Shown: positions 13,680-46,787 of the stretch, one piece after another
Position numbering within the stretch: the first letter of the stretch is position 1
Layout: each line of letters opens with the position of its first letter
Assembly (NCBI GenBank): GCA_963792965.1
Contig: CAWBYW010000016.1
Span: 115,925-179,924 of the forward strand
Length of the DNA: 64,000 bases
Reading direction: 5' to 3'
Source of the DNA: an uncultured delta proteobacterium
GTDB taxonomy: Bacteria > Desulfobacterota > Zymogenia > Zymogenales > Zymogenaceae
The notes under the pieces: generated by a model
The model's input: the letters and a program-made list of their open reading frames with translations, nothing else
Database searches by the model: none
Told to the model about the DNA's origin: nothing
Position numbers and translations under genes: made by a program

Positions 13680-13705
13680 CGATAGATGATCTCGTGTTCC
13701 CCGTG

Positions 13706-16689: not shown

Positions 16690-16731
16690 GAGACGGGGTG
16701 GGATATCGATTCTCACCCCGTCTCTTTTTTT
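16690..16731 (+). terminator. intrinsic terminator after the binding-protein gene
   Basis: Stem GAGACGGGGTG (16690-16700) / CACCCCGTCTC (16714-16724), followed by TTTTTTT (16725-16731). Confidence 0.7.
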
Positions 16732-16843
16732 GTCACGACGGCGGCGCCGGGCTTTTCCCTTGACCATATAAAGTTATTGTGATATTTAACTACTTTTAAT
16801 AATTGATTTTCGAGCCCGGCCTTTCAAGTACCGTGACCTGGAG

Positions 16844-17788
16844 GTGGCGCACGTGTCGTTGTATGCCCTCATGGGTGCGATCTCACAGGGCCTCGTCTAT
16901 TCCCTGATGGCGCTCGGGGTTTACCTTACGTTTCGGGTCTTGGATTTCCCCGACCTCACGGTGGACGGCAGCTTCCCGCTCGGGGCTTCGGTGAGCGCCG
17001 TGTTGATCACACACGGGGTAAACCCGTTCCTGACGCTCCCCGCGGCCATAGCCGCCGGGATGCTGGCCGGCCTCGCCACGGGCTTTCTCTCCACGAAGCT
17101 GCACATCCTTAATCTCCTGGCCTCGATCCTAACGATGATCGCACTCTATTCCATCAACTTGAGGATCATGGGCAAGCCAAACATCTCCCTCCTCAACAGG
17201 AAGACCGTCTTTGACTACTTTTCGGCCCTCAGGGATTTCATGGTGGGTCTCGGCATCCCCGAGTCGGTGATGGTCCCCCTTCTCTTCCTTGCGATCATCA
17301 TCCTCGTCAAGATCGCCCTTGATTTCTTCCTCCACACGGAGCTCGGATTGGCGCTGCGCGCCACCGGCGACAACCCCCATATGATCCGGGCGCAGGGCGT
17401 CAATACGAACTTCACCATCATGCTGGGCGTTGCGATCTCAAACGGCCTTGTCGCGTTGTCCGGGGCGCTCTTTTCCCAGAACCAGGGGAGCGCGGACGTC
17501 AACATGGGGGTAGGGACGATCGTGGCGGGGCTCGCTTCGGTGATCGTCGGGGAGGCCGTCATAGGAGAGATGACCGTATTTCGGGCGACGATCGGCGTTA
17601 TCATCGGGTCGGTCATCTACCGACTCGCCATCGCCGTGGCCCTGCAGATCAAGATCGGAAGCCTCCAGATCACCCCGAGCGACCTGAAGCTCATCACGGC
17701 GATTCTCGTGATCATCGCACTGACCCTTCCCACGTTCAGGAATAAGATCAAGATCGGCATCTTCCGAAGGGGAGGGACCCAACAATGA
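16844..17788 (+). CDS. ABC transporter permease (branched-chain/BPD_transp_2-like)
   Basis: 314-aa polytopic membrane ORF with a GTG start after GGAGG. Overlaps the ATPase start by 4 nt. Confidence 0.8.
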   Translation: MAHVSLYALMGAISQGLVYSLMALGVYLTFRVLDFPDLTVDGSFPLGASVSAVLITHGVNPFLTLPAAIAAGMLAGLATGFLSTKLHILNLLASILTMIALYSINLRIMGKPNISLLNRKTVFDYFSALRDFMVGLGIPESVMVPLLFLAIIILVKIALDFFLHTELGLALRATGDNPHMIRAQGVNTNFTIMLGVAISNGLVALSGALFSQNQGSADVNMGVGTIVAGLASVIVGEAVIGEMTVFRATIGVIIGSVIYRLAIAVALQIKIGSLQITPSDLKLITAILVIIALTLPTFRNKIKIGIFRRGGTQQ

Positions 17789-18591
17789 TCAGGGTACGCG
17801 ATCTCACCAAGATCTTCAATCCGGGCAGCGTCAATGAGAACCTTGCCCTGGACGACGTAACCCTCGATATCAAGAAGGGCGACTTCATCACCGTCATCGG
17901 CTCCAACGGCGCCGGGAAATCGACGCTGCTCAACCTCATCGCGGGCGTCTATCCTCCGGAGCGGGGCCGAATCGTCATCGACGGCGTTGACGTCACTTCC
18001 TTGAGGGAGTACGAGCGGGCCAAGTTTATCGGCCGCGTATTCCAGGATCCGATGATGGGGACTTCCGCCGCAATGACCATCGAGGAGAACTTCTCCATCG
18101 CCCTGGCGCGTGGCAGGAGGCGGACCCTTCGGTTCGGCGTGAATCACCGGACGAGAGACCTCTTCAAGAGCCGCCTGGCCCTGTTGGGGCTGGGGCTTGA
18201 GAACCGCCTCAAGGATAAGGTGGGCCTCCTTTCCGGAGGGCAGCGCCAGTCGCTCACCCTCCTCATGGCGACCCTCAACTCCCCGAAGGTGCTCCTCCTT
18301 GACGAGCATACGGCGGCGCTTGACCCCAAGACGGCGAAGCTCGTCATGGACATCACCACAAAGATCATCGAAAAGTACGAGCTGACAACCATCATGATCA
18401 CCCACAACATGCAGCAGGCCCTGGCCAACGGAAACCGGCTCATCATGATGCACCTGGGCAAGATTATCCTCGACGTACGGGGCCCGGAGAGGGACAACCT
18501 GACGGTGGAGGACCTCCTGGAGCAGTTCGGCAAGCTCAGGGGGAGCCTGACGGACAAGACCCTCCTTTCGATCAAGTCCGAGGCGCCGTAA
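17785..18591 (+). CDS. ABC transporter ATP-binding protein
   Basis: Walker A GSNGAGKST, signature LSGGQRQ, Walker B LLLDEHTAALD. Confidence 0.85.
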   Translation: MIRVRDLTKIFNPGSVNENLALDDVTLDIKKGDFITVIGSNGAGKSTLLNLIAGVYPPERGRIVIDGVDVTSLREYERAKFIGRVFQDPMMGTSAAMTIEENFSIALARGRRRTLRFGVNHRTRDLFKSRLALLGLGLENRLKDKVGLLSGGQRQSLTLLMATLNSPKVLLLDEHTAALDPKTAKLVMDITTKIIEKYELTTIMITHNMQQALANGNRLIMMHLGKIILDVRGPERDNLTVEDLLEQFGKLRGSLTDKTLLSIKSEAP

Positions 18592-18746
18592 AGACACCCC
18601 AAAAATGCTTCGCATTTTTCGGGGCCCCGTCAGAGAGGGGATAAAAGTGACAACGGTCTAAGAATAATGTGCCCAGTCATTAAACTCTCAGTACCTAGTT
18701 GGACGATCGTAGTATTAGAAAGATAGACCTTTCTTATTCCAGGTGT

Positions 18747-20117
18747 ATGTCAAAAAAAACCAAGACCCATTTCATTTGCCAGTCATGTGGATTTACCGTG
18801 CCACGCTGGGTGGGCAGGTGCCCCCAGTGCAACGAGTGGAACACCATCGTCGAGGAGGCCGTGCCGGAGAAGACACTGGCGACGTCGAGGGCCGCCCCCC
18901 GAAGCAGTGCGGTCTTCCTCTCGGCGGTAGACAGGACCGAGGTCTCCCGCATGGTCATCGGGATCGGAGAGCTTGACCGCGTGCTCGGCGGCGGGCTCGT
19001 GCCCGGCTCCGTGGTGCTCGTGGGAGGAGACCCCGGCGTCGGCAAGACGACGCTCTTGATGGAGGCGCTCTCCCGTCTGGCATCACACGGGGTCAAGACC
19101 CTCTATGTCTCGGGAGAAGAATCGGGGGCGCAGCTTGCCGTCCGCGCGGAGCGCCTGGGCCTTGATCCCGCCAAGATGCTCGTCCTTTTCACAACCGCGC
19201 TTTCCGACATCATGGATGCCATGGAGCGGCTCTCCCCGCGGGTCGTGGTCGTCGACTCGATCCAGACCACGGCCGACGACGAGGTCGAGTCGGCTCCAGG
19301 GGGCATCGGGCAGATCCGTGAGGTCGCCCAGAAGCTGACGCAGGCGGCCAAGGAAAAAGGGACCGCGATTTTTCTCGTGGGACACATCACCAAAGAGGGC
19401 GCCATCGCCGGGCCCAAGGTGTTGGAGCATCTTGTCGATACCGTCCTCTATTTCGAGGGGGGGACCCATTACCCCTATCGAATCCTCAAGGCCCACAAGA
19501 ACCGTTTCGGTCCCACCCACGAGGTGGGGATTTTTGAGATGCGAGAGCGGGGGCTTGTGGAGGTGACAAACCCCTCGGAGCTCTTCCTCACCCGGCGCGA
19601 CGAGCCGGTCTCCGGCGGCAGCGTTACCGCGGCGATCGAGGGAACCAGGACCATCATGGTCGAGGTGCAGGCCCTGACCACCCCGAGCGCGCTGGCCGTG
19701 CCGCGCCGGACGTCTCTCGGCATCGACTATAACCGGACCAACATCATCGCCGCGGTGCTCGAGAAAAAGGGGGGCGTCAACCTGTCGGGGCACGATATCT
19801 TCGTCAACGTCGCCGGCGGCATCAGGCTTTCCGAGCCCTCCGTGGATGCGGCGCTGGCCGCAAGCCTCATATCGAGCTTTTCAGACATACCGGTCGCCTC
19901 CGACACCGTCTTGTTCGGGGAGATCGGGCTCTCGGGAGAGATCATGGGCGTCTCTCAGGGAGCGCAAAGGATCGCGGAGGCCAAACGGCTCGGCTTTTCG
20001 AGGGCCATCGTGCCGGCCAAGAACGCGGAGGAAAAGGGGATGCCCTCCCAGATCGAGGCCGTCGGCGTGAGAACGGTCCGGGAATTGATCGACATCCTCT
20101 TTAAGGGCAAGAAGTAA
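18747..20117 (+). CDS. radA: DNA repair protein RadA/Sms
   Basis: N-terminal zinc ribbon (CQSCG...CPQCNEWNT), Walker A GDPGVGKTT, KNRFG motif, Lon-like C-terminal domain. Start at ATG 18747 within ORF 18699..20117. Confidence 0.9.
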   Translation: MSKKTKTHFICQSCGFTVPRWVGRCPQCNEWNTIVEEAVPEKTLATSRAAPRSSAVFLSAVDRTEVSRMVIGIGELDRVLGGGLVPGSVVLVGGDPGVGKTTLLMEALSRLASHGVKTLYVSGEESGAQLAVRAERLGLDPAKMLVLFTTALSDIMDAMERLSPRVVVVDSIQTTADDEVESAPGGIGQIREVAQKLTQAAKEKGTAIFLVGHITKEGAIAGPKVLEHLVDTVLYFEGGTHYPYRILKAHKNRFGPTHEVGIFEMRERGLVEVTNPSELFLTRRDEPVSGGSVTAAIEGTRTIMVEVQALTTPSALAVPRRTSLGIDYNRTNIIAAVLEKKGGVNLSGHDIFVNVAGGIRLSEPSVDAALAASLISSFSDIPVASDTVLFGEIGLSGEIMGVSQGAQRIAEAKRLGFSRAIVPAKNAEEKGMPSQIEAVGVRTVRELIDILFKGKK

Positions 20118-20161
20118 GGCGTCGTTGGGTAGGGCGATGCCCCGGCGGTTTCGGAGCCTCA

Positions 20162-23100
20162 TCAAAGGCTTACTTGGCGATGAGCTCGTCCAGCCGCTCG
20201 ATGAGTAATTCGACGCTGAAACGGCTTTTCGACGAACGGGCTTCCCGTAATCTTCAGGAAGGCCTGGGTGTCTTTTCCGAGGACGTCACCGGTGATAAAG
20301 AGAACCCTGTTGGAAAGGCCGGGGTGATATTTCTGAATAAAGGTATAGAGCTCTTTTCCGCCGATACCGGGCATCTTCATGTCCGAGATCACCACGTCAT
20401 ATCGCTTGCCGTTGATAGCCTCGATGGCCTCCTCGCCGCCCGTGCATAGATCCACCCGATGCCCCTCGTCGGCCAACGCTTCAAACAGGAGGTCCCTCAC
20501 GGATTTCTCATCTTCGACCACAAGCACCGACTTTCCGTTTCGCGGTCCGGCCGCCTTTTTCTGCATGGGCCGCTCCGTGCGTTCTTCCTCACTCGTGACG
20601 GGGAGCTCGATGCTAAAGCGTGTCGCCTTCCTTGGGGAGCTTGTCACGTCGATTTTCCCGCCATGCTCACCTATGATGCCGTAGACGATGGCAAGGCCCA
20701 AGCCCGTCCCCTTTCCGACCTCTTTGGTCGTGAAAAACGGATCAAAGATGTAGTTGATGATATCCTTGGGTATGCCCGGCCCGTCGTCCTCAAATTCGAT
20801 CGAGATGGCGCCGTTTTTCAGTACCGAGCGGATCACGAGCGTGCCCCCGCCGGCCGTGACCAGGGCGTCGTGGGCATTGTTGATGAGGTTGATGAAAACC
20901 TGCTGCAGCTGGTAGGGGTCGGCCGAGGTCTTGGGTATATCCTCGGAAAGATCCGTCTGAATCACGACGTTGTCCACCCGCAGCTCATATTCCCTGAGCC
21001 GGTACGATTCCATGATCACGTCGTTGATGGATATCATTTTTCGCTCGGGCTTGTGCTCGCGCGCAAAGGCCAATAGTCCCTGGATGATCTTCGACGAGCG
21101 GAAGGACTCTTTACGGATGATTTCGAGCTTTTCCCGTATGTGGGCCGGTATCTCCTTTCGCATCATCAGATCGGCGTGGCCGATGATGGAGGTCAGGGGG
21201 TTGTTCAGCTCGTGGGCCACCCCGGACAGGATCCCCCCGAGGCTCGAGAGCTTCTCGGCCTGGGCGAGCTGTCGCTCCATTTTCTTTCTCTCGGTGATGT
21301 CCTTGAGGAAGCCCTGGTAGCCGATGATCGCGCCCGACTTGTCCTTCCTGACGACCGCCGTCATCAGGCAGTCGAGCAACTGGCCGTCTTTTCGCGTGAA
21401 CGATATCTCGTGGTCCTTAACGAAACCCCTTTCCGCAAGAAGACGAATAATCCGGTCTCTTTCGTCCGACGGTGAATAGACCTCGGTGAGGTCCAGGCTC
21501 AAGAGCTCTTCCCTCGTGTATCCGGTGAGTTGTTCCGCCGCCCGATTGATGTCGATGATCCGGGCCTCTCTATTCGTCACGACGATGATATCCCGGGAAG
21601 TCTCGAAGATACCGCGGTACCTTTCTTCAGACTCTTTGATTGCCTCTTCGGCCTCTTTTCGCTCGGTGATGTCTCTGATGGTCCCCTGGTAGCCGACGAT
21701 AGCTCCTTTCCTGTCCCTCCTGGCCGCCGCGGTCATGAGGCAGTCCGCATACGTCCCGTCTTTTTTCCGCATAGTCAATTCAAAATCCTTGATAAACCGT
21801 GTCTTTCTATGGTCTCCTTGAATCGATTGCGCTCCGTGAGGATCCTTATAGAAGTAGCTGACGTTTCTGGAGAGGGTCTCCTCCCTCGTGTAGCCGAGGA
21901 TCGTTTCAAACGCCGGATTGACGTCAAAGATAGCTCCTTCTGGCGAGGTAATGAAGACGATATCCTGGGACGTCTCGAAAAAGCCGCGGTATTTCTCCTC
22001 GGACTCTTTGAGGGCCTCCTCGGCCCTTTTGCGCTCCTGTTCGCTCTCAATAGACCGACAGGGCAAATGCGATATCTCCGGCTACTTCCACGAGCAGGGA
22101 TGCTTCCTCATTATCGAAGACGTCGGCCTGGTCCCCATAAACCCCCAGCGCGCCGAAGACCTGTGTACCGACCACAATGGGCAGCGCCATGCATGAGCGG
22201 TAACCCCTTTTCAGCGCCTCCTTCCGCCAGGGCAGGAAGTCCGGATCATGGGCGGTATCATTGGTTATCCACGGGCGCTTCGTTTTGATCGCCGTCCCCA
22301 TCGGGCCCCTTGCCGGTTTTCGTGCTCATCCCAGGTTACGGTGATGTTCTTGAGATATCCGTCCTCAAATCCCCAGTAGGCCGCCGGGATGACTCGTTTG
22401 TGCCCCTCTTCGACCAGGCCGATCCAGACGAAGTGGTAGCCGCTCACCTCGCACAGGATCTCGCATGCTCCCTCAAGGATCGTATCTTTATCCTTTCACC
22501 TTCGCGATCAACTGGTCGATGTTCCTCAGCGACCGGAGGAGCCGGTTGAGGTGGGCGATCCGCTCCTGCGCCCGCTTCCATTCGGTGATGTCCCTCCCGA
22601 GGCCGTGCGCCTCGACGACTTTCCCGTCCTTCCAGATCAGGGTTTCCCTCATCTCCACCGTCCTGATTTCTCCGCCCTTATCAACAATGGAAAGATCGAA
22701 GGGGCCGATATCCTCGCCCTTTCGCTGTCTCTCGAAGAGCTCGGGAATCTTTTTCACTGATTCCGGGGCCAAGAGCTCAATGTAGTTTTTCCTGATCAGC
22801 TCATCCCGGGTATACCCGGAGACCCGCGCGAGGGCCCGGTTGAGATAGAGTATCTTTCCGGTTCCGTCCGTCACGTAGACGATGTCGTCGATGTTCTCCA
22901 CCAGCTCCCGATAGCGCCGTTCCGACTCCCTGAGCGCATCCTCCGCCCTCTTACGCTCGGTGATGTCGCGCCCGATCCCCTGAAATTCCACGATGCGATT
23001 TCCGCTCCAAACCAGTTTTTCCCGGGTCTCGATGGTCTTCAGCGTAACCGTCGGCATCAAAGACATCAAGGCGGAAGATCCCGACATCCTCACCGGCGCG

Positions 23101-24495
23101 CTGGCGCGCTGAAGACGTCGGCGGCGGTCTCCAATGAGCCGGGCGCAAGGAAATCGGCGAAGCTCCGTCCAATCACCTCCTCCCGTCGACGTCCGATAAA
23201 CTCCTCCGCCGCGCTGTTCAGAAAAGTGATTTTCCCCTGCTCGTTGGTAACGTAGACGATATCCGCGATATTCTCGACCAGCTCCCGGTAGCGTTGTTCC
23301 GACTCCCTGAGAGCCAGCTCGGCCTCCTTGCGCCTGCTGATATCCGTTACGATAACCTGAACAGCCGGCTTTCCCCGATACGTGAGAGGTGTCGCAAGGA
23401 CATCGACGGGAACGGCGGTGCCATCCAGCCTGACGTAGACATTCTCCGCCGGGTAGAGCCCTTCCTCTCCGGACAACATCCGCTTAATCCGGTCCTCGGC
23501 ATCTTTCAGATAGTCGGGGTGGATGATCTGCTTAATATCACGGCCGGTTATCTCGTCGGGGGATCCCGCGCCGAGGATCTTTGCCCCCTCCATATTCGTG
23601 AAAACGATCTTCCCCTCGGACTGGACGGCTATACCCACGGGGGCGATCTCAAGGAGTTTACGGTAACGCTCCTCGCTCTCGCGGAGGGCTTCCTCGGCCT
23701 CCCTGCGCTCCGTAGTGTTTCTTCCCACGCCCAGAAAGCCGGAGGGCCGCCCGTCGGCGTCCCTGAGGAGCGTCACGTTGATCTCGCCCCAGAAGGTGGA
23801 ACCGTCCTTCCGACAAAACTCGAGCTCCATCGTTCGGGATATCTTCACGTTCGGGTCGTAAAGCCGCTCAGGCGTCAGGTCTTCCGCCATCGCCCCGGCG
23901 GCGATCCGATACGAATCGGGGGCCATGCTTTTTTCAAGAGGAAGGTCACGGAGCTCCTCGAGGCTGTACCCCCGGTTGAATGCGACCGAAGGATTCGAGT
24001 ACGTCGTGCGAAAGTCCATGTCCATCATCCAGACGGTGTCGTTCATATTCTCGGTGATGATGCGGTAGCGCTCGTCTTTTTCGCGCAGGGCCGCCTCGGC
24101 GCGCTCTTTTTCGATCCGGAGCCTTTTTTGTTCGAGGGCGACGGCGACGGCGGGCCCCAGCCCTTCATATGCTCCTTGATGACGTAGTCGGCCGCGCCCG
24201 CCTTCATGCACTCGACGGCGGTGTCCTCGTTTTGCGATCCGGTCAGGATGATCACGGGCGTTATCGGCGCGCGCTCAAGGGTAAGTTTGAGCGCCGTCAG
24301 CCCGTCAAAGGAGGGGAGCTTGAAGTCCGAGACGATGAGGTCGGGACGGAACGCCTCGAGGGCCGCGAGGAACTCCTCGCGCGTCTCGACCGTCCGGAAG
24401 ACACACTTCTTGCAGCTCTTGCCGATCTCCCGCTCGGCCAATTCCGCGTCCGTCGGGAGGTCTTCGACGATCAGGATGCGCGTGGGCTCATCCAT
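20162..24495 (-). CDS. hybrid sensor histidine kinase REC-PAS(x3)-GAF-PAS(x2)-HisKA-HATPase-REC (~1440 aa), about 7 frameshifts as assembled
   Basis: The ORF-track fragments are contiguous in domain logic. They are: 24043..24495 (REC, ILIVEDL...LIVSDFKLP); 23090..24211 and 22488..23093 (PAS units ending in R(K/R)xAE linkers); 22265..22447 and 22047..22301 (GAF-like); and 20162..22066 (2 PAS, H-box GVAHELNNPLTSI, DDGPGI, GTGLGLAIV, C-terminal REC VLVVEDE...VVISDMKMPG). Single-base shifts near 24162, 23095, 23048, 22494, 22305, 22050 and 20220 rejoin the frames. The restored stop is at 20170. Confidence 0.8.
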
Positions 24496-24543
24496 TGGGT
24501 TTCACCTTCGCTTCATTGATAAGAAGGGATGCCGTCGGCCCGC

Positions 24544-33932: not shown

Positions 33933-34580
33933 TCAGGGCAACCGTTCCCCCCGCGTGGACGCCCGGCCCTGCCCCCCGATAACCTTTACCGCCTCCTCAT
34001 AGGCCAGCACATACCCCCACCGATTTTTCTCCCTGTCCGTCCGCTCCGAAAGGAGCGCGTCGATCTCGCCGGTGTTCCGGGTGACGGGCTTGGGTCCCGA
34101 AAGGCCCTTTTTCAACGCGTCGATCTCGCCGGCATAGTAGACCGCGAGTCCCTCCGAAAACCAGAGCGGCACGTGGGTGCCGAAACGAAGCCGGAGAAGC
34201 GCGAGACACACCTCATGGGCGACGGTCGACTTCAACACCCCGCGCTCTTTCAGGACGTTCACCGGCTGCAGGTAGATCGATCCGTCGATCATCGCCGAGG
34301 CCGACCAGAACGGCAGCCTCGTCTGGGCCGTGAAATCTCCGGTCTCCTTGAAGATCACCACGTCGATGGGACGGCCCGCGCCGCTCCCAACCCTCGTTTC
34401 CATCGCGGTGTATGCCGATTCGAGGGCGTCCTTTACCTCCGAGAGCTCGCCGGCCCGAAGGGTCTCGGCGAAATAGATATTGAAATGCCGTGTCTGGGTC
34501 TGGGCAAAGTCAAGGGCGCCTGCCTCTCGGCTGATGACGAGAAGAAGGCACGAGATCAGAAATAGGAACGGTCTTCTCAA
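33933..34580 (-). CDS. secreted protein, degenerate peptidase-MA-like (HExxL instead of HExxH)
   Basis: Signal peptide MRRPFLFLISCLLLVISREAGA. VAHEVCLALL...WFSEGLAVYYAG resembles HExxH...E zincin motifs, but the second His is Leu. Weak call. Confidence 0.35.
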   Translation of the reverse strand: MRRPFLFLISCLLLVISREAGALDFAQTQTRHFNIYFAETLRAGELSEVKDALESAYTAMETRVGSGAGRPIDVVIFKETGDFTAQTRLPFWSASAMIDGSIYLQPVNVLKERGVLKSTVAHEVCLALLRLRFGTHVPLWFSEGLAVYYAGEIDALKKGLSGPKPVTRNTGEIDALLSERTDREKNRWGYVLAYEEAVKVIGGQGRASTRGERLP

Positions 34581-35605
34581 TCCGTATGCACGCCTCCGAA
34601 ATAGACGCGGAAAACCTCCCGGGCCACCGGCGCGGCATCCTCACCCCCCCGGCCGTGGTAGAGGAAGACGACCACGGCGATCTCGGGGTTCTCGGCGGGG
34701 GCAAAACCCAAGAACCAGGCGTGAGTCGCCCAGCTGGAGCCGAGGAACTCGCCGGTGCCGGTTTTGCCCATAATCTCGTGCCCGTCCGGCGTCCCCTTGA
34801 CGGCGGTTCCGTACGCCGCCGCATCGCGCATTCCCTCGGCGAGGATCGGCGCCGCGCGGGAAACCTCTACCTTCCTGTTGAGTCTCGGCGAAAATGAACC
34901 GATATCGTCTGCGGTGGGGGTCACGCGGGGAACCCAGATACTGCCCCCGTTCACGAGGGCCGAAAGATTCACGATCACCTGAAGGGGCGTCGCCGTGACG
35001 TTGTCGGTGTCTCCGATGACATACTCACGGGCAAACGCCGGCTCGGGGGGGATGAGCCTTCCCGCCTCCTCCTGTGGAAGGTTGACCCCGGTCTTTTCTC
35101 CAAACCCGAGCTCGGAAAGCCCCCGGTAGGTGGTGTCGGCGCCCAGCGTCTCGGCAAGGGAAAGGAAATAGAGATTACACGAGTAGGCGATCCCGCGGAC
35201 AAGGTTGAGATCACCGTGTCCGGGGGGGTACCAGCAATCGTATTTCGTTCCCGATATAACGGCACTCCCGGTACACCTGAAGCGAGCGTCGGGAGAGATA
35301 CGCTTCTCTTCGATCCCTTTCCAGACGCTCACAAGCTTGACGAGCGAGCCGGGGGGAAAGGCCCAGCGTGTCGCCATGTCGGGCCCCACCATCGCTCTGA
35401 TGCGTCCCGTCTTCACGTCCATGACGACGACCGCCCCGGTCCGGCCCGCCAGGGCGTCGGATGCCGCGCTTTCGAGGAGGGCGTCGCCTTTCAACACCTG
35501 TTCCGGGCCCGGCCTGCAACCCGAGGCGAAGAGAAATAAAAGGGCGACCCCCCCGATGAGGGGTCGCCGAAAGAGTAAACGAATCCGCCGCCGGATCCCC
35601 GTCAT
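34577..35605 (-). CDS. penicillin-binding transpeptidase-domain lipoprotein (no glycosyltransferase module)
   Basis: Lipobox LFASGC. SxxK (PGSLVKL), SxN (YSCN) and KTG (GKTGTG) motifs occur in the canonical order. Overlaps the A2M stop by 4 nt. Confidence 0.75.
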   Translation of the reverse strand: MTGIRRRIRLLFRRPLIGGVALLFLFASGCRPGPEQVLKGDALLESAASDALAGRTGAVVVMDVKTGRIRAMVGPDMATRWAFPPGSLVKLVSVWKGIEEKRISPDARFRCTGSAVISGTKYDCWYPPGHGDLNLVRGIAYSCNLYFLSLAETLGADTTYRGLSELGFGEKTGVNLPQEEAGRLIPPEPAFAREYVIGDTDNVTATPLQVIVNLSALVNGGSIWVPRVTPTADDIGSFSPRLNRKVEVSRAAPILAEGMRDAAAYGTAVKGTPDGHEIMGKTGTGEFLGSSWATHAWFLGFAPAENPEIAVVVFLYHGRGGEDAAPVAREVFRVYFGGVHTD

Positions 35606-38600
35606 TTCCCCTCGGTGATGACAAGGCTTGAGCTTCCCGTCCTTCCGAAGCGGTCCGGGAAGTACATCAGGTACGCCTCGGCCGGCATGACACCGTAGGT
35701 CCCCGGGTTTTGGGCGCGGAGGATATACTTGAAGACATAGGTCCCCACGTCGACGTAGTCCATCGATAGAGCGATCCGCTCATCCCGGAATTCCCTTCCG
35801 GCAAACCACCAGTCCGCATCGCCGGTATAGAGATCGTCCCCGGAGATGACATAGTTTTTATCGTCGCTGATGGCCTCATAGCCCGCCGGGTAGTAGTCCT
35901 CCAGCAGGAAGTATTGGGCCTTCTTGTCGGTCGTGACCGAAAGCTCCACGAGGATCTCGTCCCCGCTACTGACCGGGCCGCTGAGCGGCACCTTCGCGTA
36001 GATGAGCTCTCCCTTCTTGGGCACCTTCTTGAGGAGGTAGTACTTTCTGCTCACGGCAAATCCGGCGTTCAGCGGGGCTATCGAGGGGGCCGCGCTGTAG
36101 TGCGTGAAGGTCGAGGAATAGTAGAGGCTACCCGGCCCGTCCTTCTTGATGACGATCGTATTGGGGCCGGTCTTGAGATCCCCTTCCTTGACGGTAATCG
36201 TTCCCCCCTCGGTGAGCATCGTCTCCTTGGTGATGTGGCTCTTCTTGAGCTGTTTGCCGTTGAGGGTAAGCGTCATGGTGTAGTTCGGCTTGATCTCCCC
36301 GGTCCGGGTGATGTAGTCCGTCAGGGCATAGATGATCTTCCCCGTGGCCTTGGTGGAGCGCCAGTAGCTTCCGGTCCGGTTGATGATAAGCCAGCGGATC
36401 GTCTTGGGGATGAGGGGATTATTGACGTCGCGCATGGCCATCACCCGCAAAACGTACGCGGTGGTCTCCAGGGGATCGGCCTCCCAGTCCCACCAATAGA
36501 AGTCCTCTCCGACGTAACCCCAGTGAACATAGCCGTTCTCCTGGATCTTTTCCTTCATGAGCAGGTCATACAGGACGTTGGCCTTCTCCCGGATCCCCTC
36601 GTTCTCGTAGGCCAACAGCAGCATCGCCTGAGAAATGGGGGTGAGCTTGTCGCGCTTCTCGAACATCTCGTCGAGCCACGCGGTCTTGAGCTTGTCCGTG
36701 TAGGACAAGACGTAGAGGGCGTAGACCTTGACGGAGTCCTGATCGATCTTGCTCAGCTGAGAGATGAGGGACGCGGTGCCGCGCTTGATGACGCCCTCGT
36801 CCACGGTGATGGGAATGCCTGCCTCGGGAAGGAGGCGTTTCGCTTCGAGGAGCCCGTACAACACGTAGGCGGTCATGTAGGGATCGGTCTCGTCGAACTC
36901 GTACCACCCCCAGCCGTTATCGTCGTGCTGCCGTTTGTAGAGCACCATGAGCCCGCTCTTGATGTAGGCGGGGAGGTCCTTCTCTACGCTCTTATCGGAA
37001 AGGTCAAGCTTCTTTAATACCGACGCGACCATGACTGATGGCAAGAACCTTGCCATTACCTGCTCGTTTCACCCATAGGGGTAGCCGACGAGGAATGGTA
37101 TAGCGGCAAGCATTGTGTTGACGAGCGATGGACTGGTGGTAATGGTGAGCTCAGCAGCGTTCTTTATCGTGTTGGCGGGCTTGTTGACCGTCACCGTGAG
37201 CGTCCCGGAGTCCTTGATGATCTCTCCCATATCGTTCTTTGTCTCTTTGATGCCGAGCGGGAGGATCGGCACCTTTATCTCCATTCCGTCGGAGACCTCG
37301 TTGGTCATCGCCTTTGCCGTGAGAACGGCACTTCCCACGAGGTCCGCCCTGACGTGCCAGTCGACGCGCTTCTCTCCGTTTTTCGGGACGATTGCATCGA
37401 CCGGAACGCCGGAAGCGAGCGTCAATCCCTTTGCGTCGAACGTGAAGTGCACCTTCTTGTCGGTCGACAGGTAATTATGGGCGATGGTGGAGATTACGAG
37501 GTCGTCCCCCTGGCGCAGAAATCGCGGCGCCTCTATGCGGACGAGTAAGTCCTTGCGCTCGATGACCCGGTAGGTAGTCTCCCCCATGCTGTCGCCCGTG
37601 GTCACCCCCCGGACCGTCGCACGCCAACGCGTCAGGTTGTCCGGGAAGGTGACGGTGACCGTGGCCATACCCTTTGCGTTGGTCGTGATCGTGGGCGACC
37701 AGTACATCGTGTCCTTGAAGTCCTTTCGGATCAGCGGTTGAACGAGCGTGTCTCCCTTGAAGTCGGCAAGCTTCGTCTCTTTTTCCGGAAGTCCCGCCAG
37801 GAGTCCTTTCCGGTGAGAGTATCCGTAAAAGCGGAAGTAGAGGGATGACGACGTGTCCACGGAATGATAGCGCAGCGAGTAGAAATACTTCTGGATTTCG
37901 TCGACAAGCTCCGGTGAGATGGCGTAGATGGCGTCGTCCACGACGCCGAGCGACACCTCTGCCGACACGGGTTTGCCTGTGCTGTCCGTCGTCTTTATCG
38001 TAAAGGTGCCCTTTTCTTGCGGCTCGTACGTCGCCTTATTGGAGGTCACCTCGACGTTGATGAACTTTTCGGTCGGTGGGATGATGATGTTCTTGCTGTC
38101 CGAATAGAGCTCATCGTTGAAGATCGCGGCAACCGAGAGGTAGATGTTGGGGGTGTATCTCTCCTTTATGGGGAGATCCAGCATCGCCGTGCCACCCGTG
38201 GCTTTGATGACTCGGCTATCAAGGATCGAGTCTCCCTCGGTGGTAATCAACAGATAGGTATCCTTCACCGGCGCGGCGATCAGGATGTGGGCGGTATCGC
38301 CCACCGCGTAGGTATCCTTGTCGGGGATAATCGTGACGCCGCCCTCCGACGTCCCGCCGTAGGCATACCCCTCCGTAAAGGAATACGATGAGTCCTTGGC
38401 CGTGGTGGAGTTGCCCGCGTTATCGAAGACCGTGGCGATGAAATTGACGTCGCCCACGTTTTTCACCGTATATTCGATGACGGCGTCCCCACCGGAGTTC
38501 GTCCTTCCCGAAAGGGTGGCCGAGCTCGTGACCTTGCCCCCCTGCCAGTCGGTCTCCGTGACGATGAGCGTCACCGGCACATTCGCCACACCCTTGTTGT

Positions 38601-40242
38601 CAAAGTCGGAGACGTTGACCGTGATCCGCGCCTTATCCCCCGGCGCGTAGACCCAGCGGTCGGGACGTAGCGAAACGGTGTAGTTTGACCGAACGACCTT
38701 GACGACGCTGCTGGTGGTAACCACCCGGCGCGAGAGATCGGTAACGTTGGCCTCGATGGTGAAGGTATAGTCGTTGTCGGGCGACTCAAGGTATTGCGAC
38801 GTGTCTACCGTGAGCCTGAGCTTCCCGGCGTTGTCGAGCATAGCCGTGCCACTGTCCACCATGACCTTCTCGGTGGCGGTCCAGTAGTCTTCGTCCATGA
38901 AGTACCAGCCCCAGTCGTACCCCCACCACCAGGGGCGCTCGTAGACCGACCGGTAGACCGTATAGTCCACCTTGGCCTCCGTTACGGGGCTGCCGAAGTA
39001 GTAGCCCGCCTCGATATCGGCCGTGATCGTGTCGCCCCGGATGTAGACGTTCTTATCCGTCCTGATCTTGACCTCGTATTCGGGCTTCTTGTACTCCTCC
39101 ACCTTGAAGCTGTTGTAGTAGTTCTGTCCATTCAGTCCCACGACGATCTGATATTCGCCGAGCGAGGGCTCCTCTCCGAGGGTGAAGTCCCCCGAGAGGC
39201 TCCCGTACTTATTAATCTTATAGTTGTTCCGGAAGACCTCGTCGCCCTTGGCGTCGTCGATGATGACCAGGTAGTCGTCGCCGGTGTCGGGAACCTTCAG
39301 CCCCGAGTCGGTGGCGTTTCTCAGGATCGAGCGAAAATGCACCGTGTCGCCGGGACGGTAGACGGGTCGGTCGGTGTAGGTGTAGACCTTGTCGCTTGCT
39401 TCCCCTTCCCCGTAGGCATAGGGGTCGGCCAGGGTGAAGTTCTCGCCGTCCTGGGCGAAGACATAGATGACGTCACTCTCGGTCGCTTTCACCTTGGAGT
39501 AGTAGATCCCGTCGGAGTCCGTCTTCCCCTTGAAGAGGAGTTTTTTCTGGTTGTCGTAGACCGATACCTTAACGCCTTTCATCGGTTTGCCGGTTACCCG
39601 GTCGGCCACGTAGATAAGGCTGTCGGTGCTCGAGTTCTTCACGACAAACGACATGGGGGTAACGACGACCATCGTATAGGCCACCGAATCCTCAAAGACC
39701 GCCTCGACGAGGTAGCACCCCGGTTTCGGGACTTTGACGTCTATGTTGTGGTACTCCCACTGTCCACTGCCCGAGATGACCAACTTCTCCTGCCAGCGGT
39801 TGAGGAGCTTGAACTGGGTCAGGATCGGGAAGAGCTCGTAGGTCTGTGGCGCGGGTGAGACGGGCTCCTGGGCGTGCGGCAGGCCGAGTGCCGAGACGAC
39901 ATCGTCTCGGATGTTGTCGGAGAGTTTTGAGCGATAGTCGTCCCGGAAGAGTTCTACCCCCTTCCGTTTGATCGCCCCAACCATCTCGGCGGGGGCCGAT
40001 GTCCCCCGTTTCGTCGTCACCACCGGCGAGTGGACGTCATCGAGCCCGAGGAAGTACGATTTCGGATCGTCTACCCGGTAGAGCCGGATATCGAGGGACG
40101 GGACATCCATGGAGGAAACGGTGACGGTGACGGGCTCCCCCGGAGCGAAGATCTTGTCCGTGGAGAGCTCAAAGGAGCCTGCGAGCGTCACGGCCGGCAG
40201 TGTTAAGAGCAATACGATCGAAAGAATAAGGGACTTTTTCAT
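35602..40242 (-). CDS. bacterial alpha-2-macroglobulin family protein with an in-frame TGA at the thioester Cys position (candidate selenoprotein)
   Basis: ORFs 37069..40254 (signal peptide MKKSLILSIVLLLTLPAVTLAG after GAGGGA, then MG-domain-like beta-rich repeats) and 35602..37056 are in the same frame. They are separated only by TGA (37069-37071) and 4 sense codons. Read-through gives LVGYPYG-[TGA]-NEQVMARFLPSV, matching the YPYGCxEQ thioester motif. No frameshift was seen across ~4.6 kb. Confidence 0.85.
37038..37071 (-). other. in-frame UGA (37069-37071) plus candidate SECIS hairpin (37038-37056)
   Basis: On the mRNA the order is UGA, then 12 nt, then AUGGCAAG-GUU-CUUGCCAU. This is a perfect 8-bp stem; the apical loop is GUU, or GGUUC if the closing pair opens. 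As I recall it, the E. coli fdhF SECIS is UGA, 11 nt, then GGUUGCA-GGUC-UGCACC. Confidence 0.5.
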
Positions 40243-40485
40243 AGTTTCCCTCAAAGAATGGAGTATATCGTTGTTTGGTCTGTCACCGTGAGAGTGCGCG
40301 GCGACCGCGGCAATCCCCGGCTGTCGTTACCGATACGGAGGTAATAAGGATCCTTCCTCGAGAATCAGGGCTCGCCTCGTTGTGCCACATCGCCTGGCCT
40401 CCCACGATTCGGGCAGGAACGTTCCCCTGCAATGACCGAGAAGAGCTCCCACGATACTTTGGACCTCAAAAGCACCTATAAAGCT

Positions 40486-41619
40486 TTAGTTCAGTATCTT
40501 GAACCGATAATAACCCAAAAAATGGTCGTTCTCTCTTACCGGCCGCCAGCGCTCGTCCGGATGCACTTTGAGCGTGGCGAGCCTGACCTTCCTCACGTCC
40601 CCGTTATCGTGGGAGCGCGGGCCGGTGTGATAGACGAGCCAATCTTCGTTTACGTCCGAATCGCTCTCCTTTCCCCACTCGCCGAGGTAGATCATCATAT
40701 GGGAGGGCATCCGGGGGTTTTCCGGGTTGAAGAAAAAGAGGAGATCACCGGGAAGAATACCCTTCTCGGTTCGCCCGAGGAACACGACGTTGTACTGAAG
40801 CAGCGCCTCGGCCGATGCCGCCGCAGAAAAGTTGACGCCGATATCGGAAGGGACAAACGGCCCCGGCGCCGTCCGAAAGACATCGACTCCCAGCAGCGGC
40901 ACGTGGGGATAGGTGTACTTCTTCACGTCGGGATTTGCGGGGCTGACCAGCGTCGCGTAGGAGGAAAAGAAAGCGTCGTCGTGGCGCTTGAGCGCCTCGA
41001 CATAGGCAAAACGCACAAGCCCCGCACAGTCCCGGTTGATCTGGTCCCAGTGGCGGTTCTTCTCGTAGACTTGAGATTCCGCGATGGCGCAGAGCCACCG
41101 CCGGAAGTTGAGGCGGTCTGTGTCGCCGAAGAGCTCCACCACATCGGGAAACCCGTCCCCGTCCCGGTCACGCATGTCGGGGATAACATTCACCTGTGCC
41201 CGGGCAGGCGCCACCCCCGGAGACTCGGCCCGGATCGTGAGGTCACCCGTCTCGAAGGTCGAGATGAGCGTGAGGGAGGCCGTTCCGCGGACAAACGCGA
41301 GCGGTCCTGTTTCCACCCTTGTCGTCGCCGGGCCGACAAGCGTCACCGTAAGGGGTGCGCCGCAGCCGCGCGCAACATTCCCCCTGTCGGTCTTTGCAAG
41401 GATCGTGATCTCCACGGTATCTTCCTTGTTGGCCCAGAGCGTCTGCTTTGACACGGCGATCTCGATGCTTTTGGCCTTTGCGCACGACGTGATCAAACAG
41501 GCCAACAGGAGCGTCGAAAGGATCGCCGCTCCGCCTTTAATCCAGGTCCTTGACCCTGATCTTAAACCCGCCTTGAATTGCATCACCGCTGAAGTTGACC
41601 CCCCCGTAGCATGAGACAA
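40486..41619 (-). CDS. DUF1175-like lipoprotein (Ig-like domain, DxDxDG Ca-type motif, NlpC/P60-like Cys region)
   Basis: Lipobox LITSC. DRDGDGFPD motif. FRRWLCAIAESQ...INRDCAGLVRFAYVEAL matches my recollection of DUF1175 (E. coli YfaT, encoded next to the A2M homolog YfaS). The likely start is the internal ATG at 41583. Confidence 0.55.
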   Translation of the reverse strand: MSHATGGSTSAVMQFKAGLRSGSRTWIKGGAAILSTLLLACLITSCAKAKSIEIAVSKQTLWANKEDTVEITILAKTDRGNVARGCGAPLTVTLVGPATTRVETGPLAFVRGTASLTLISTFETGDLTIRAESPGVAPARAQVNVIPDMRDRDGDGFPDVVELFGDTDRLNFRRWLCAIAESQVYEKNRHWDQINRDCAGLVRFAYVEALKRHDDAFFSSYATLVSPANPDVKKYTYPHVPLLGVDVFRTAPGPFVPSDIGVNFSAAASAEALLQYNVVFLGRTEKGILPGDLLFFFNPENPRMPSHMMIYLGEWGKESDSDVNEDWLVYHTGPRSHDNGDVRKVRLATLKVHPDERWRPVRENDHFLGYYRFKILN

Positions 41620-43280
41620 AAGATCTTCTGGTCAGTTCCACGAGCGGCACGAGCCGCTTTTCCGAATCCTGGTAGAGAAAGTATTTATAGTTTGCCGAGA
41701 TGTTGACGAGATAACCCTCGATCAACGACATGGCGTTGTTCCCGTCTACGTAGAGATAGAGGTCGTAGGCGTCTTTCGGCATGTCTTTTTGCGCCGAGAT
41801 GAACGCGGGCGACTTCACGAGAAAATCGCGGTCAAAAAGGCCGCCCGCCCCCGTCATCGAGGAAATAACAGAGAGGTCGTTGAGCTGCTCCATCGTCGAA
41901 AGGTCCCAGAAGAGGAAGAGCCTGTCATCCTTGAGCGCAAAACCAGGATTAGGCTTGACGGAGGCGACGTACGACGTCCCGTTCCAATCGAGGCTCTTTT
42001 CCCTGAACTGGCCCATATAGGAGATGTGAGCGGCGTCAAGCTCGAGGGGAGACGGGCCCGCATCTGAAGAATGAATAGCTGTAGAGCTTGCCGATATTGG
42101 TGGAAAGGGCCTCTTCTTTGCCCGGTGCCACCCCAACGGAGGCGATCGTCCTGAGGTACGGTTTTTCTCCCTCATACCCGATCCCGACGAGGGCCGCCAG
42201 CGCCCCCCTGCCGAGGTTGTTGATGATTCCACCCTCCAGGTCGAATCCGCCCTTGTCCTTCCATTTTTTCAGGATCGAGATGTAGTTTACCTTTTGGGCG
42301 ATGTCGGTAAACCAGACCTTCCCGAAATGGGTATAAAGGATGCCGGGGTCGAAGGCCCGAAACGCCACGAGCGCCGCCGTCTCGCCGGGCATCGCCGATA
42401 GGTCTATTGTCGCCTTATCGGAGAGCGACCCCAGCCCCGCCAGGAGGCTTTTCCCCTCGCCCCCGGTGTAGGGGGCAAAGAGCGTGATATCCGCGCCGGC
42501 CTCGGAAAAGGTGACCGAGAAAAGGAGCGCGTCCGTCCCCTTGAGAAGCCGTCTGGCATGGGCGACGATGCCCATCTCGGAGTCATCGGGGCTCATCGCC
42601 TTCGTTGAATAGAAAAGGATATGGTAGTCCTTTGGCAGGTGGGAGAGCCGATCCATGACGGCGGGGTTTCCGGAGAGGTTCTTTGGGTTTTGCCCCGTAA
42701 CGATGTCCCACTCGGATTTGAAGAGATCGGGGGAGTCGGAGACGATCGTATAGCCTTTGACGTTCTTGTAATAGATCTTCTTGTCTGTGCTCGCGACAAC
42801 CCAGACGGAATAGGAGCCCCAGTTTTCCTTCGTCACGTGGCTCGAAAAGATCGAAAAGAGGTTGATGAGAAAACCCTTAAACCAGCCCGTCTCAAGCAGC
42901 GCCGCCGAGGCCTCCTTTCCCTCGAGGGTCGTCCGATAGAAGACGGCCCGCGCACCTATGACCCACAGGAAGCGTTTCAGGGTCGGGCGAATCCCGGTCA
43001 TCTTCTCGATAGTCCCGAGCCTGGAGAGCATCGGGGCCGAGAGGTCGCTCTTGATCGGGCCCTCAAAGAGCGAAAGATCGCCGACTTCATCAAAATAATC
43101 GCTTGAGAGCAACGGCCTCAATCCTGCCCTGAGGTCCCTGAGGTAGACGAAGGAGTCTACGTTCTCCGGGATGATCTGATAGAGCTCGTAGGCGTCTCCG
43201 GCCACGGCACTAAGGGCCCCAAGCGAAAGGGCCGCGATAACGACCGCGCCGATCAGACATGCCCTGATCTTAGATCTCAT
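41537..43280 (-). CDS. secreted hypothetical protein (~580 aa, possibly DUF2138/YfaA-like by position), one frameshift as assembled
   Basis: ATG at 43278-43280 after GGAGGG, with signal peptide MRSKIRACLIGAVVIAALSLGALSAVAG (ORF 42036..43322). The frame changes near 42075 into ORF 41537..42232 (…AIHSSDAGPSPLELDAAHISYMGQF…). The family assignment rests on gene order only. Confidence 0.4.
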
Positions 43281-43299
43281 GAATCCCTCCTTTTCTCCG

Positions 43300-43890
43300 C
43301 TATCGGCCGATGGGGCCCGCAAATGACTCGGGATCGGCCCCCGCCCGGAGGATCGTATTGTAGTACCTCAGCGTGACGATGTGAATCACCCGCTCGCGCA
43401 TAGTATCGGGGGTCGCCTTCATGAGAGCGGGGAGGTCCTTGTAGAAATCCTTCAGCGACTCGTTCACGTCGCTCTTCATCTCGGGCGTCGGCGCGCCGGC
43501 ACGACCGAGGCCCGGAGGTTCTTGTATTCGTCCCACTCGGCGTCAAGGATGACGTCCAGCGCGTCTCCCACGGCACCTGTGTCCGTCCCGCCGGGCTGGC
43601 TGTAGTCCGTACCCGACGGCGTCTCGGAGACCGTGGGAGGCACAAGCATCCTGGTCCCGGGCGGCGGCGATCATCTCCCACTCGTGGCGAGGGACGTCCG
43701 GATCTCGCTTTTGCGGCTTGGGATAGCCCGCCTTGATCTGATCGATCGCAAGGGTAACGTCGGCAAAGACCCCCCCGACCTTCGGACCCTTCTCTCCGGG
43801 CGCGGGCGCCTTTTTTTCGCAGGCCCACGAGAAGATCAAGAGAAACGAGAGGAGCCCAAGAATCGGCCAGAGCAGTCCCGGTCGGGCGCT
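43300..43890 (-). CDS. hypothetical lipoprotein, two frameshifts as assembled
   Basis: Pieced from ORFs 43543..43839 (…LLIFSWACEKKAPAPGEK…HEWEMIAAARD), an unlisted third-frame stretch (…VSETPSGTDYSQPGGTDTGAVGDALDVILDAEWDEYKNL…) and 43300..43536 (…EMKSDVNESLKDFYKDLPALMK…). The 236-aa Arg-rich ORF 43277..43987 is the off-frame read. The 5' end is uncertain. Confidence 0.35.
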
Positions 43891-43911
43891 CAGTCCGTCC
43901 CGCCGTTTCCG

Positions 43912-44779
43912 TCAGGATCGGCCGAGCGCCGAGAGGATCTCGGCCAGCGCCCGATCCGAGCGATACGTATTGGTCTTGATGTTCCATCCCTTCTCCTTCA
44001 AACCGATTAAGAGCTGGGTAACCTCGGGCAGAAACGGCCTCACGCCGTCGAGCGCCGCCCGGTCGGAAAAGAGTTCTTCCGGGGTGCTGTCTAGTTTGAT
44101 CTTCCCCTTCTCGATAACGACGATCCGGTCGGCCACCCGGATGATTTCTTCCATGTCATGGGAGATGATGATGACGGTCTTGTTCTTGGCGTTGAGGGCC
44201 TTGATGTGCCGGATGGTCTCGGTCCTCGACTGGGGATCAAGTCCCTGGGTGGGCTCGTCGAATATGAGTATGGGAGGATCCATAGCGAGGATCGAGGCGA
44301 TGGCGACCTTGCGCTGCTCACCGCCGGAAAGGGTGAACGGCGAGCGCGTCCTGAGCCGGTCGATGTCAAGGTTGACGAGGCCTGCCGCATCACGACACTC
44401 GCCTTTCGACCTCCTCTTTCGAAAAACCCCCTCGGTTGACGAGGGAAAACGCGATCTCTTTCTCGACCGTCTCCTCAAAGAGCTGGTGCTCGGGATACTG
44501 AAAGACGAGCCCTACCATTTCCCGCAGCCTGCCGGTCTTCTTGGTGGCGGGCGTCAGGTCAAAATCACCGACGCGGACGCTCCCCTTCGCGGGCGTCAGC
44601 AGTCCGTTGAGGTGCAGCGCCAGCGTCGTCTTCCCCGAGCCGGTGCGCCCGATCAGCGCGACGAACTGGCCCTCCTCGATCGAGAGGTTCACCCCCGAGA
44701 GCGCCTCCTTTTCCAGCGGCGTATTGGGGAAAAAGACATGCGAGAGGTCTTTTATCTCGATGAGCGGTGCGGTCGTCAT
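43912..44779 (-). CDS. ecfA: ECF-transporter-type ABC ATPase (EcfA-like), one frameshift as assembled
   Basis: ORF 44390..44779 carries Walker A GRTGSGKTT and Q-loop VFQYPEHQLF. ORF 43912..44478 carries LSGGEQRKVAIASILA and ILIFDEPTQGLD. The frames join near 44400. Confidence 0.75.
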
Positions 44780-45033
44780 GAGACTTTGTAGACCATGTCG
44801 CCCGGCCGAACCCTGTCTTTGATCTTGATCCCCACGAGTGCGCCTGACGCGACCTCGGTTACCGGGGCGTTGTCGATCTGCATCGACTCCACCACTTCCG
44901 TGAAATCGGTCGTCGCACCCTTGAAGCGGAGCTCGTCCCCAACCTTGAGGGAGCCCTCGACCTTTATGGCGGCAACCGACGGCTTGGCAAAGAACTTGAT
45001 GACCTCTCCGATTTTTACCTCACTTGACATCAC
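44776..45033 (-). CDS. small EF-Tu domain-2-like beta-barrel protein
   Basis: 85-aa ORF. GSLKVGDELRFKG...VESMQIDNAPVTEVASGALVGIKIKDRVRPGDMVY follows the translation-factor domain II pattern. 4-nt overlap with ecfA. Confidence 0.5.
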   Translation of the reverse strand: MMSSEVKIGEVIKFFAKPSVAAIKVEGSLKVGDELRFKGATTDFTEVVESMQIDNAPVTEVASGALVGIKIKDRVRPGDMVYKVS

Positions 45034-45052
45034 ACTCCTCCTCCCGTGGTAG

Positions 45053-46524
45053 TCAGCATGATCTATCCTTATTCATTCCCTTCTCATGGCCGACAGGATT
45101 CCGTTTGCGAGGTCCGTGACCTCCCTCTCCAGGACGGTTCGAGGATCGATGACGAGGCTCTCGTCCGAGATTCGTGCGATAATGGTCGGATGCTTGCGTC
45201 CTCAAGCGTCTCTCGAGCGCCTCGGGGCTCTCGGCCAGCGGAGCAATCGTTACCACCCTTGTCGGGATCTGTGCGGTGGGAAATGCCCCGCCGCCCACTC
45301 CCGAGAAGTCATCGGCGGTCGTGACGTGGAACTTCGGATGGGGCGTGGCCGCCAGCAGCTTCACGATCCTTTTGGCCCTTTTCTTCGTCTCGTCATAGGA
45401 CATCGTAATCATCGCCAGGACCGGGATCTTTTTTCGCGCATCAAACGGGTCCCGATAAATCATCAGGGTCGATTCGACGGCGGCAAGCGACAGCTTATCG
45501 ATCCTCACGGCCCGCGCCAGTGGGTTCTTTTTAATGCGGTCCGATCGGGTCCGCCTCCCCTACGATGAACCCCGCCTGGGCACCGCCCAACAGCTTATCG
45601 CCCGAAAAACGTAATGACATCGACGCCCGATTTAATCACTTCCGAGACGGTCGGCTCATGGGGGAGGCCCCAGGGCCCGAGATCCATGAGCGAGCCGCTG
45701 CCGAGGTCCTCCATGACCGGGATGTCATATTTTTTCCCGAGCCCGACGAGCTCGGCGGTCGACACTTCCTCGGTGAACCCGACGATCCGGTAATTGGAGG
45801 TGTGGACCTTGAGGAGGAGCGCGTCTGGCCGACCCGATGGCGCTCTCGTAGTCCGAAAGCCCTCGTCCGGTTCGTCGTGCCGACCTCTCTGAGGCGCGCG
45901 CCGCTCTTTTCCATGACATCCGGGATACTAAAAGCGCCGCCGATCTCCACCAGCTCTCCCCGTGAGACGATGACGTCCCTGCCGTCGGCAAGAGTATTGA
46001 GCGCAAGCAACACGGCCGCGGCGTTGTTGTTGACCGCAAGGCCCGCCTCCGCGGAGGTGATATGGGCGATCAGGTCGGAAACGTGGTCGTGGCGGGATCC
46101 CCGCTCTCCGCGCTCGACGTTGAATTCGAGATTGGAATAGCCCGAGGCGATGCGTACGATATGCTCGAGGGCCTCCGCGGCGAGGGGCGCGCGGCCGAGG
46201 TTTGTATGCAAGATAATCCCCGTGGCGTTGATGACGGGCGCAAGCTGACGGCGTGACCGATTTGATCAGCCACTGCTCGATGAGCGACAAGAGCTCCGGC
46301 TCCGAGACTTCGGCGGGATGCTCTTTGGACATGAGCTCTTTTCGCGCGGACAAAATGGCGCCTCTCACCGCCTCCTTTACCACCATCCTCGGAAAGCGCC
46401 TCGATAGTTCCGTGACCATGGGGTGAGCCAGCAGCTTATCCACCGCGGGGAGTTTGGCGAGAGGGGATTTTTGTGCCGGGTTTTCCGACTTTCTTGGCAT
46501 GGCGCCGCTCGAGATTTTTTCCAT
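45053..46524 (-). CDS. selA: L-seryl-tRNA(Sec) selenium transferase SelA, about 6 frameshifts as assembled (possible pseudogene)
   Basis: SelA-diagnostic peptides are spread over all three frames. They include: KLPAVDKLL...[11 protein letters not shown]; [19 protein letters not shown]; [18 protein letters not shown]; [15 protein letters not shown]; [18 protein letters not shown]; EVGTTNRT; [16 protein letters not shown]; [16 protein letters not shown]; [24 protein letters not shown]. Shifts lie near 46245, 45860, 45835, 45600, 45545 and 45195. The restored stop is at 45073. Confidence 0.8.
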
Positions 46525-46787
46525 CTATACCATACTTTGACGGATTTCTCAAGGAAAATAAGGCTCTATGGGCGACGAACCTGACCCTCCCGCGCGGTTC
46601 TCAGTTCGGAAATGGAGATTTTGACCCTCAGGCGAGCGAAGGGCTCGGGGGGCCGAGCCCCGCCAAGACAAACGATTCCGCCGCTCATTATCTGACGGTA
46701 AAGGTAACTGAAGTCAGCTCCGCTCCACCCGAATCGGAGCCGTTCATGCGCAGGTCGTAGCTTCCGGGGGTCGTCGGGCCACAAGGC

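Follow-up and report, generated by a model that had tools for sequence, protein, structure and literature searches.

A selA gene interrupted by six single-base insertions, probable consensus errors, and a candidate selenocysteine codon in a nearby alpha-2-macroglobulin gene

The window, the 64,000-nucleotide stretch of DNA analysed here, contains a selA gene whose reading frame is repeatedly interrupted and, on the same contig, an alpha-2-macroglobulin gene with an in-frame UGA. Does the interrupted selA mark an organism that is losing selenocysteine (Sec), or do the interruptions lie in the assembled consensus of an organism with a live Sec system? The sequence-only reading of this locus had expected the frameshifts themselves to decide between a live and a decaying Sec system, but frameshifts alone decide nothing; comparison with relatives did.

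Identity of selA and placement of its insertions

The following features were assigned to selA; the extra bases are numbered in the direction of transcription, and the added base is bracketed in the sense sequence.

45073-46524, minus strand: selA (L-seryl-tRNA(Sec) selenium transferase), broken by six single-base insertions
46524 or 46500, minus strand: ATG start codon; the ATG at 46500 aligns with residue 1 of homologues
45073-45075, minus strand: TGA stop codon
45594-45596, minus strand: AAG codon of the PLP-binding lysine in the motif FSGDKLLGG, aligned with SGDKLLGG of Aquifex aeolicus SelA
46246-46248, minus strand: extra base 1, gccgtc[A]gcttgc, outside any homopolymer
45858-45860, minus strand: extra base 2, gagggc[T]ttcgg, which lengthens a short run
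45825-45829, minus strand: extra base 3, tcggcca[G]acgcg
45605-45609, minus strand: extra base 4, in a T run of five in the window and four in the related contig L083
45540-45542, minus strand: extra base 5, atcgg[A]ccgcat
45193-45199, minus strand: extra base 6, ttgagg[A]cgcaag, placed only by homologues of about 70% identity

Removal of these six bases gives a stitched protein that scores 587 bits on the TIGR00474 equivalog model (cut-off 267.9; model positions 2-451 of 455) and matches PF12390 (Se-cys_synth_N, E = 2.7e-10) followed by PF03841 (SelA, E = 2.7e-129), an architecture common to all of its top homologues. It aligns to A. aeolicus SelA (3W1H, residues 18-460), including the lysine of SGDKLLGG, which we take to be the Schiff-base lysine of SelA. 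Extra base 4 sits three codons upstream of this catalytic lysine, and the lysine codon can be read only once that base is removed. The N-terminal domain, core and lysine motif are thus kept as in bacterial SelA (TIGR00474; PF03841 plus PF12390; structures 3W1H and 8UZW); unlike those proteins, the deposited frame is broken six times, and the uninterrupted frame of ~460-490 codons expected of SelA is not found in the deposited sequence. The corrected protein is 73% identical to intact homologues from metagenome-assembled genomes (MAGs) of related Desulfobacterota (Deltaproteobacteria/Thermodesulfobacteriota) and 92% identical to the fragment encoded by L083, a 2,960-bp contig of JGI metagenome 3300037878 that was reached by exact look-up as a cluster-mate of the window's PfkB.

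Frameshift-aware protein-to-DNA alignment of four intact SelA homologues (P0001, P0003 and P0008, ~71-73% identical; P0013, 62%) to the minus strand of 44950-46650 placed exactly six frame changes, each a gain of one nucleotide in the window, at 46248, 45860, 45829, 45609, 45542 and 45199, and all four homologues agree on them. The stitched frame has no in-frame stops in this alignment and no in-frame gaps relative to P0001, and the residues beside each insertion are conserved right up to the site. Nucleotide alignment to L083 puts five of the insertions at 46246, 45858, 45825, 45609 and 45540. L083 ends before extra base 6 and the last ~170 codons of selA, and the C-terminal third is placed by the ~70%-identical homologues. 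Extra base 6 has no close reference because a scan of metagenome contigs gave no conspecific selA (best 69% identity); the relatives that a scan of genome contigs gave are 77% identical or less in nucleotides. Of the six insertions, no more than three or four lengthen a run of the same base, and just one falls within a homopolymer of at least four.

These placements agree with the sequence-only reading in the number of frameshifts, which it had put at about six, all within 10 nt of those found here, and in the spread of SelA over three frames, seen on the minus strand of 45073-46524. The end of the gene differs: position 45053, given earlier, belongs to an out-of-frame open reading frame (ORF), and the true stop is the TGA at 45073-45075.

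Frameshifts across the window and in related assemblies

Frameshifts elsewhere were located with a whole-window frame model based on codon usage and filtered by GC3, which was checked by Pfam searches of stitched translations and by syntenic orthologues. Some switches in this model are ordinary gene boundaries, and these were excluded via Pfam domain spans. The following lesions lie outside selA.

22055-23110, minus strand: second burst, six +1 insertions at ~23110, 23046, 22496, 22324, 22312 and 22055 (references P0133 and P0134)
44395: one frameshift in an ABC ATPase gene, orthologue-checked
49112 and 48604: two frameshifts in an AAA_33 kinase gene, orthologue-checked
51539 and 51489: two frameshifts in a Memo gene, orthologue-checked
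198-aa protein gene: two frameshifts, orthologue-checked
Candidates from the frame model and Pfam alone: two in a TPR protein gene, one in a GT39-like gene, at least one in a second kinase gene and one at ~42060

The density of frameshifts is 4.1 per kb in selA and ~0.3 per kb in the window outside selA, a difference of ~13 times. Because this is far above the background of the window, the clustering in selA is a genuine property of the sequence. From the first insertion to the last, selA has six in 1.05 kb (5.7 per kb). The second burst, six in 1.06 kb, has the same first-to-last density of 5.7 per kb, so selA ties with it and does not, as had been claimed from the sequence alone, hold the highest local frameshift density by itself. 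This burst lies in a response-regulator/PAS/GAF/histidine-kinase gene (20165-24501), whose GAF domain spans three of the junctions. Since the sensor kinase repeats both the type and the density of the defects in selA, the defects of the window come in bursts of ~1 kb; the 4.7-kb alpha-2-macroglobulin gene and a 1.6-kb beta-CASP gene are free of frameshifts. No motif common to the insertion sites, of a kind that methylation or slippage might leave, is evident when the selA and kinase sites are compared. With ~25-30 frameshifts of ±1 nt over 64 kb, occurring in bursts, pseudogene calls on single genes of this window are unsafe, and annotation pipelines would call selA, the ABC ATPase, several kinases and others pseudogenes purely from the quality of the consensus.

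The closest relative is uninterrupted over the part of selA that it covers. L083 contains pfkB, a 235-aa gene and, as called, codons 1-298 of selA; its nucleotide identities to the window are 91% in pfkB and 88.6% over the selA stretch. The 888 bases of selA coding sequence common to the window and L083 contain no indels other than the five window insertions, and removing one base per site restores the L083 residues at all five. The lesions are therefore missing from the closest independently assembled relative, as expected of an artefact: the selA of L083 is one ORF through five of the six sites, and those of L002 and L003 read through all six. Comparison with sister genomes, which the sequence-only reading had proposed, thus favours consensus errors.

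Equal lesions are also found in unrelated genes of the contig (ABC ATPase, AAA_33 kinase, Memo, 198-aa protein and sensor kinase), again as an artefact would leave them. Two of the relatives, L003 and L006, are MAGs of the Microflora Danica catalogue, which was built from Nanopore data alone, by Flye assembly and a single round of Medaka polishing (PMC12313526). The authors of that catalogue looked for errors typical of Nanopore data and saw lower coding density chiefly in MAGs of lower coverage; they tie it to low coverage and long homopolymers (PMC12313526). In the same 12 kb, L003 has 10 frameshifts and L006 has 5, mostly in genes other than those affected in the window; selA itself is unbroken in L003 and carries one +1 in L006. 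Lesions that differ in this way between sister assemblies are noise, not shared history. As in these Nanopore-only MAGs, indels of ±1 nt split conserved genes of the window and are scattered over many genes; unlike in those MAGs, most of the indels are insertions, and long homopolymers account for few of them.

Gene calls are fragmented in the records of both L003 and L006, the nearest public Nanopore MAGs to the window. The split genes are pfkB, Memo, Hist_deacetyl, AAA_33 and alpha-2-macroglobulin in L003 (L001/L003; MFD03899.bin.1.137, contig_360, 3864-20738), and selA, ABC ATPase, Memo and the 198-aa protein gene in L006.

Substitutions in selA resemble those of a gene in use. The window and L083 differ in selA by 63 synonymous and 25 nonsynonymous changes (dS 0.35; dN/dS 0.11), and in the uninterrupted neighbour pfkB the values are 0.35 and 0.077. 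Every selA segment of at least 15 codons between frameshifts has a ratio of 0.13 or less; a 10-codon segment has too few differences for an estimate. In the relative-rate comparison with L002, L003 and L006, selA has a divergence ratio of 2.62, within the 1.7-3.0 of ten flanking genes (at least 80 columns each). Neither a dN/dS rising toward 1 nor faster divergence of the protein, either of which decay would bring, is seen, and in place of the nonsense codons and indels of mixed size that mark decay there are six +1 insertions only. These codon comparisons show purifying selection on selA.

The UGA codon of alpha-2-macroglobulin and its surroundings

Whether the Sec system is live bears on the alpha-2-macroglobulin gene, for which the following features were recorded.

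35605-40326: alpha-2-macroglobulin gene, ~8 kb from selA, in conserved synteny
37036-37071, minus strand: 36-nt invariant stretch that begins with the in-frame TGA (37069-37071) at the position of the thioester Cys, GYPYG-TGA-NEQ
L003 19266-19301, L004 19502-19537 and L006 19426-19461: the same 36-nt stretch in relatives

The TGA stands in for the Cys of the CxEQ thioester motif, and the frame is intact for 488 codons past it. It is kept in four other loci (three independent genomes) and occupies the identical position in L003, L006 and L004, the last of these a more distant assembly from outside the Microflora Danica set. Beginning exactly at the TGA, 36 nt are shared without any difference, even at synonymous positions, by the window, L003, L004 and L006, the four sequences aligned. 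No other invariant run in the 4.7-kb alignment is as long: the next reaches 15 nt, and only 56% of all columns are invariant. The 36-nt run folds into a predicted 8-bp hairpin, AUGGCAAG-GUU-CUUGCCAU, with its apical G/U residues 23-26 nt away from the U of the UGA, a spacing that we take to be bacterial SECIS geometry, as in the fdhF element. The hairpin resembles a SECIS element in this respect; its stem is invariant and so gives no covariation. Together, the TGA and the predicted hairpin indicate that Sec decoding is in use, and the protein is probably an alpha-2-macroglobulin of selenocysteine type, which would have a selenoester in place of the thioester. No description of a Sec-containing alpha-2-macroglobulin turned up in a full-text search of the literature. 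Reassignment of UGA as a sense codon (a variant genetic code) was considered separately and rejected as unlikely, since the window holds only one credible in-frame TGA.

If SelA had been lost for long enough to gather six frameshifts, such an untouched arrangement of UGA and hairpin would not be expected. Loss of SelA should also have left the dependent gene adjusted or broken, and here the TGA, the hairpin and the 488-codon ORF are all intact.

The order selA, 84-aa protein, ABC ATPase, unannotated proteins, DUF1175/MagC, alpha-2-macroglobulin and a transpeptidase-domain (PBP1C-like) protein (window 34580-44790) is conserved from selA to the transpeptidase gene between the window and L001/L003 (L001 11741-21464). 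This conserved order physically links selA to the sole candidate selenoprotein gene in view.

On its other side, selA is flanked by the remains of a gene that is complete in relatives.

46691-46783, minus strand: remnant (last ~30 codons) of the 235-aa gene, with ~636 nt missing relative to L002, L003 and L083

In L002, L003 and L083 the full 235-aa ORF, which has an internal repeat and no Pfam domain, sits between pfkB and selA. Its shortened form at 46525-46787 reflects either a real deletion or an assembly collapse. The sequence-only reading had found no tRNA-Sec in this interval, and ARAGORN and Rfam likewise find no tRNA, tRNA-Sec or other RNA family in the whole window; selB, selC and selD fall outside these 64 kb. 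The absence of tRNA-Sec beside selA is nonetheless uninformative, because the relatives lack one there too (no tRNA in the selA flanks of five relatives), and the weight placed on it as evidence falls away.

Consensus error weighed against loss of selenocysteine

The sequence-only reading had posed two alternatives, error over a live Sec system or real frameshifts in a lineage losing Sec. That framing was sound and its suggested tests were sensible. The evidence, left undecided there, strongly favours error: dN/dS, the restriction to +1 changes, the neighbouring genes and the UGA all point the same way. We consider it very probable that the six insertions are an assembly artefact, that selA is functional and that the Sec system is live. 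The gene would then be an ordinary selenocysteine synthase gene, present in the cell as one ORF of ~473-481 codons, and the six breaks would be single-base insertion errors in an error-prone metagenomic consensus, most likely Nanopore-only. The extra bases would be absent from the real DNA. Errors of this kind would occur throughout the window in bursts of ~1 kb, with selA in one and the sensor kinase in another. The functional SelA would convert Ser-tRNA(Sec) to Sec-tRNA(Sec), which would let the nearby alpha-2-macroglobulin UGA be read as selenocysteine.

Two features of the insertions complicate an origin in sequencing error. Because the density in selA is ~13 times that of the rest of the window, a uniform error model fails and errors that come in bursts would have to be invoked, for which the kinase burst is the only support; low local coverage or strain collapse is a plausible cause of such bursts. 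Nanopore is the probable technology of the window, to judge from its relatives, and the classic Nanopore homopolymer signature is weak in selA because only one site falls in a homopolymer of at least four. A mosaic consensus, drawn from at least two co-occurring strains, or one that crosses a local patch of low coverage, is also an artefact and would explain why errors fill 1.05 kb of selA and 1.06 kb of the kinase gene and spare the alpha-2-macroglobulin and beta-CASP genes. A population of ~90% identity does exist in nature, as L083 shows, but substitution divergence from L083 is even over the selA segments and no block has switched ancestry, and as the account of these insertions we give the mosaic or low-coverage patch little credence.

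Real frameshifts would make selA a very recently inactivated gene at the first step of selenocysteine loss, with the alpha-2-macroglobulin UGA now acting as a stop. Loss of the Sec trait is known from comparative genomics of bacterial lineages, in which selA, selB, selC or selD become pseudogenes and Sec is replaced by Cys, and the window resembles such cases in having a selA disrupted several times. The ~13-fold excess of frameshifts in selA, the two of six sites that are not homopolymer-like and the adjacent 235-aa gene, largely deleted relative to relatives and so a sign of real or apparent rearrangement nearby, all lend themselves to this reading. For six independent lesions to gather, however, selA would need to have drifted neutrally for a long time, yet its dN/dS is 0.11, against 0.077 in pfkB, and its relative rate is normal. 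Bacterial indels arise at roughly one per ten substitutions, and at that ratio five indels in 888 nt predict ~50 neutral substitutions, of which ~37 would be nonsynonymous and one or two would create stops; the observed nonsynonymous differences number 25 for both lineages together, and stops number zero. Real bacterial pseudogenes show deletion bias, indels of mixed size and nonsense codons, and decay of selA should have brought the first two of these, not six +1 insertions. The same burst, moreover, occurs in the unrelated sensor kinase. In contrast to genuine Sec-trait loss, selA here is without relaxed selection, stops or deletions, and in the single candidate selenoprotein gene in view the UGA, the hairpin and the 488-codon downstream ORF are all preserved. 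Real inactivation of selA is accordingly very unlikely. The narrower version, in which the organism was caught shortly after inactivation, with a Sec-type alpha-2-macroglobulin still encoded but no longer completed, seems to us similarly improbable. Were the six insertions real, this locus would show the Sec trait at the very onset of its loss, with the SECIS-like hairpin still encoded and intact.

Programmed recoding, by ribosomal +1 frameshifting or transcriptional slippage at all six sites, would leave the insertions real and the protein whole, and the T5 run at one site could in principle slip. The six sites nevertheless share no motif, five of them are absent from L083 and more distant homologues lack all six, no known system depends on six shifts in a row, and the same defects occur in unrelated genes. 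We regard recoding as barely conceivable, and programmed frameshifting of selA was rejected as a candidate, its sites being missing from L083, L002 and L003.

Consensus error over a live Sec system is thus the preferred reading, and the selA result is in that case an ordinary one that serves mainly as a control. The Sec-type alpha-2-macroglobulin is the interesting by-product: the main objection to taking its UGA as selenocysteine is removed because the nearby selA is most likely functional.

Elsewhere in the window, the minus strand of 4977-7313 encodes a single ORF of 779 codons in which a PNP_UDP_1 phosphorylase domain is joined to an Amidohydro_1 deaminase domain. The arrangement resembles a fusion of MTA phosphorylase with MTA/SAH deaminase, and a second amidohydrolase paralogue stands alone at 2675-4000.
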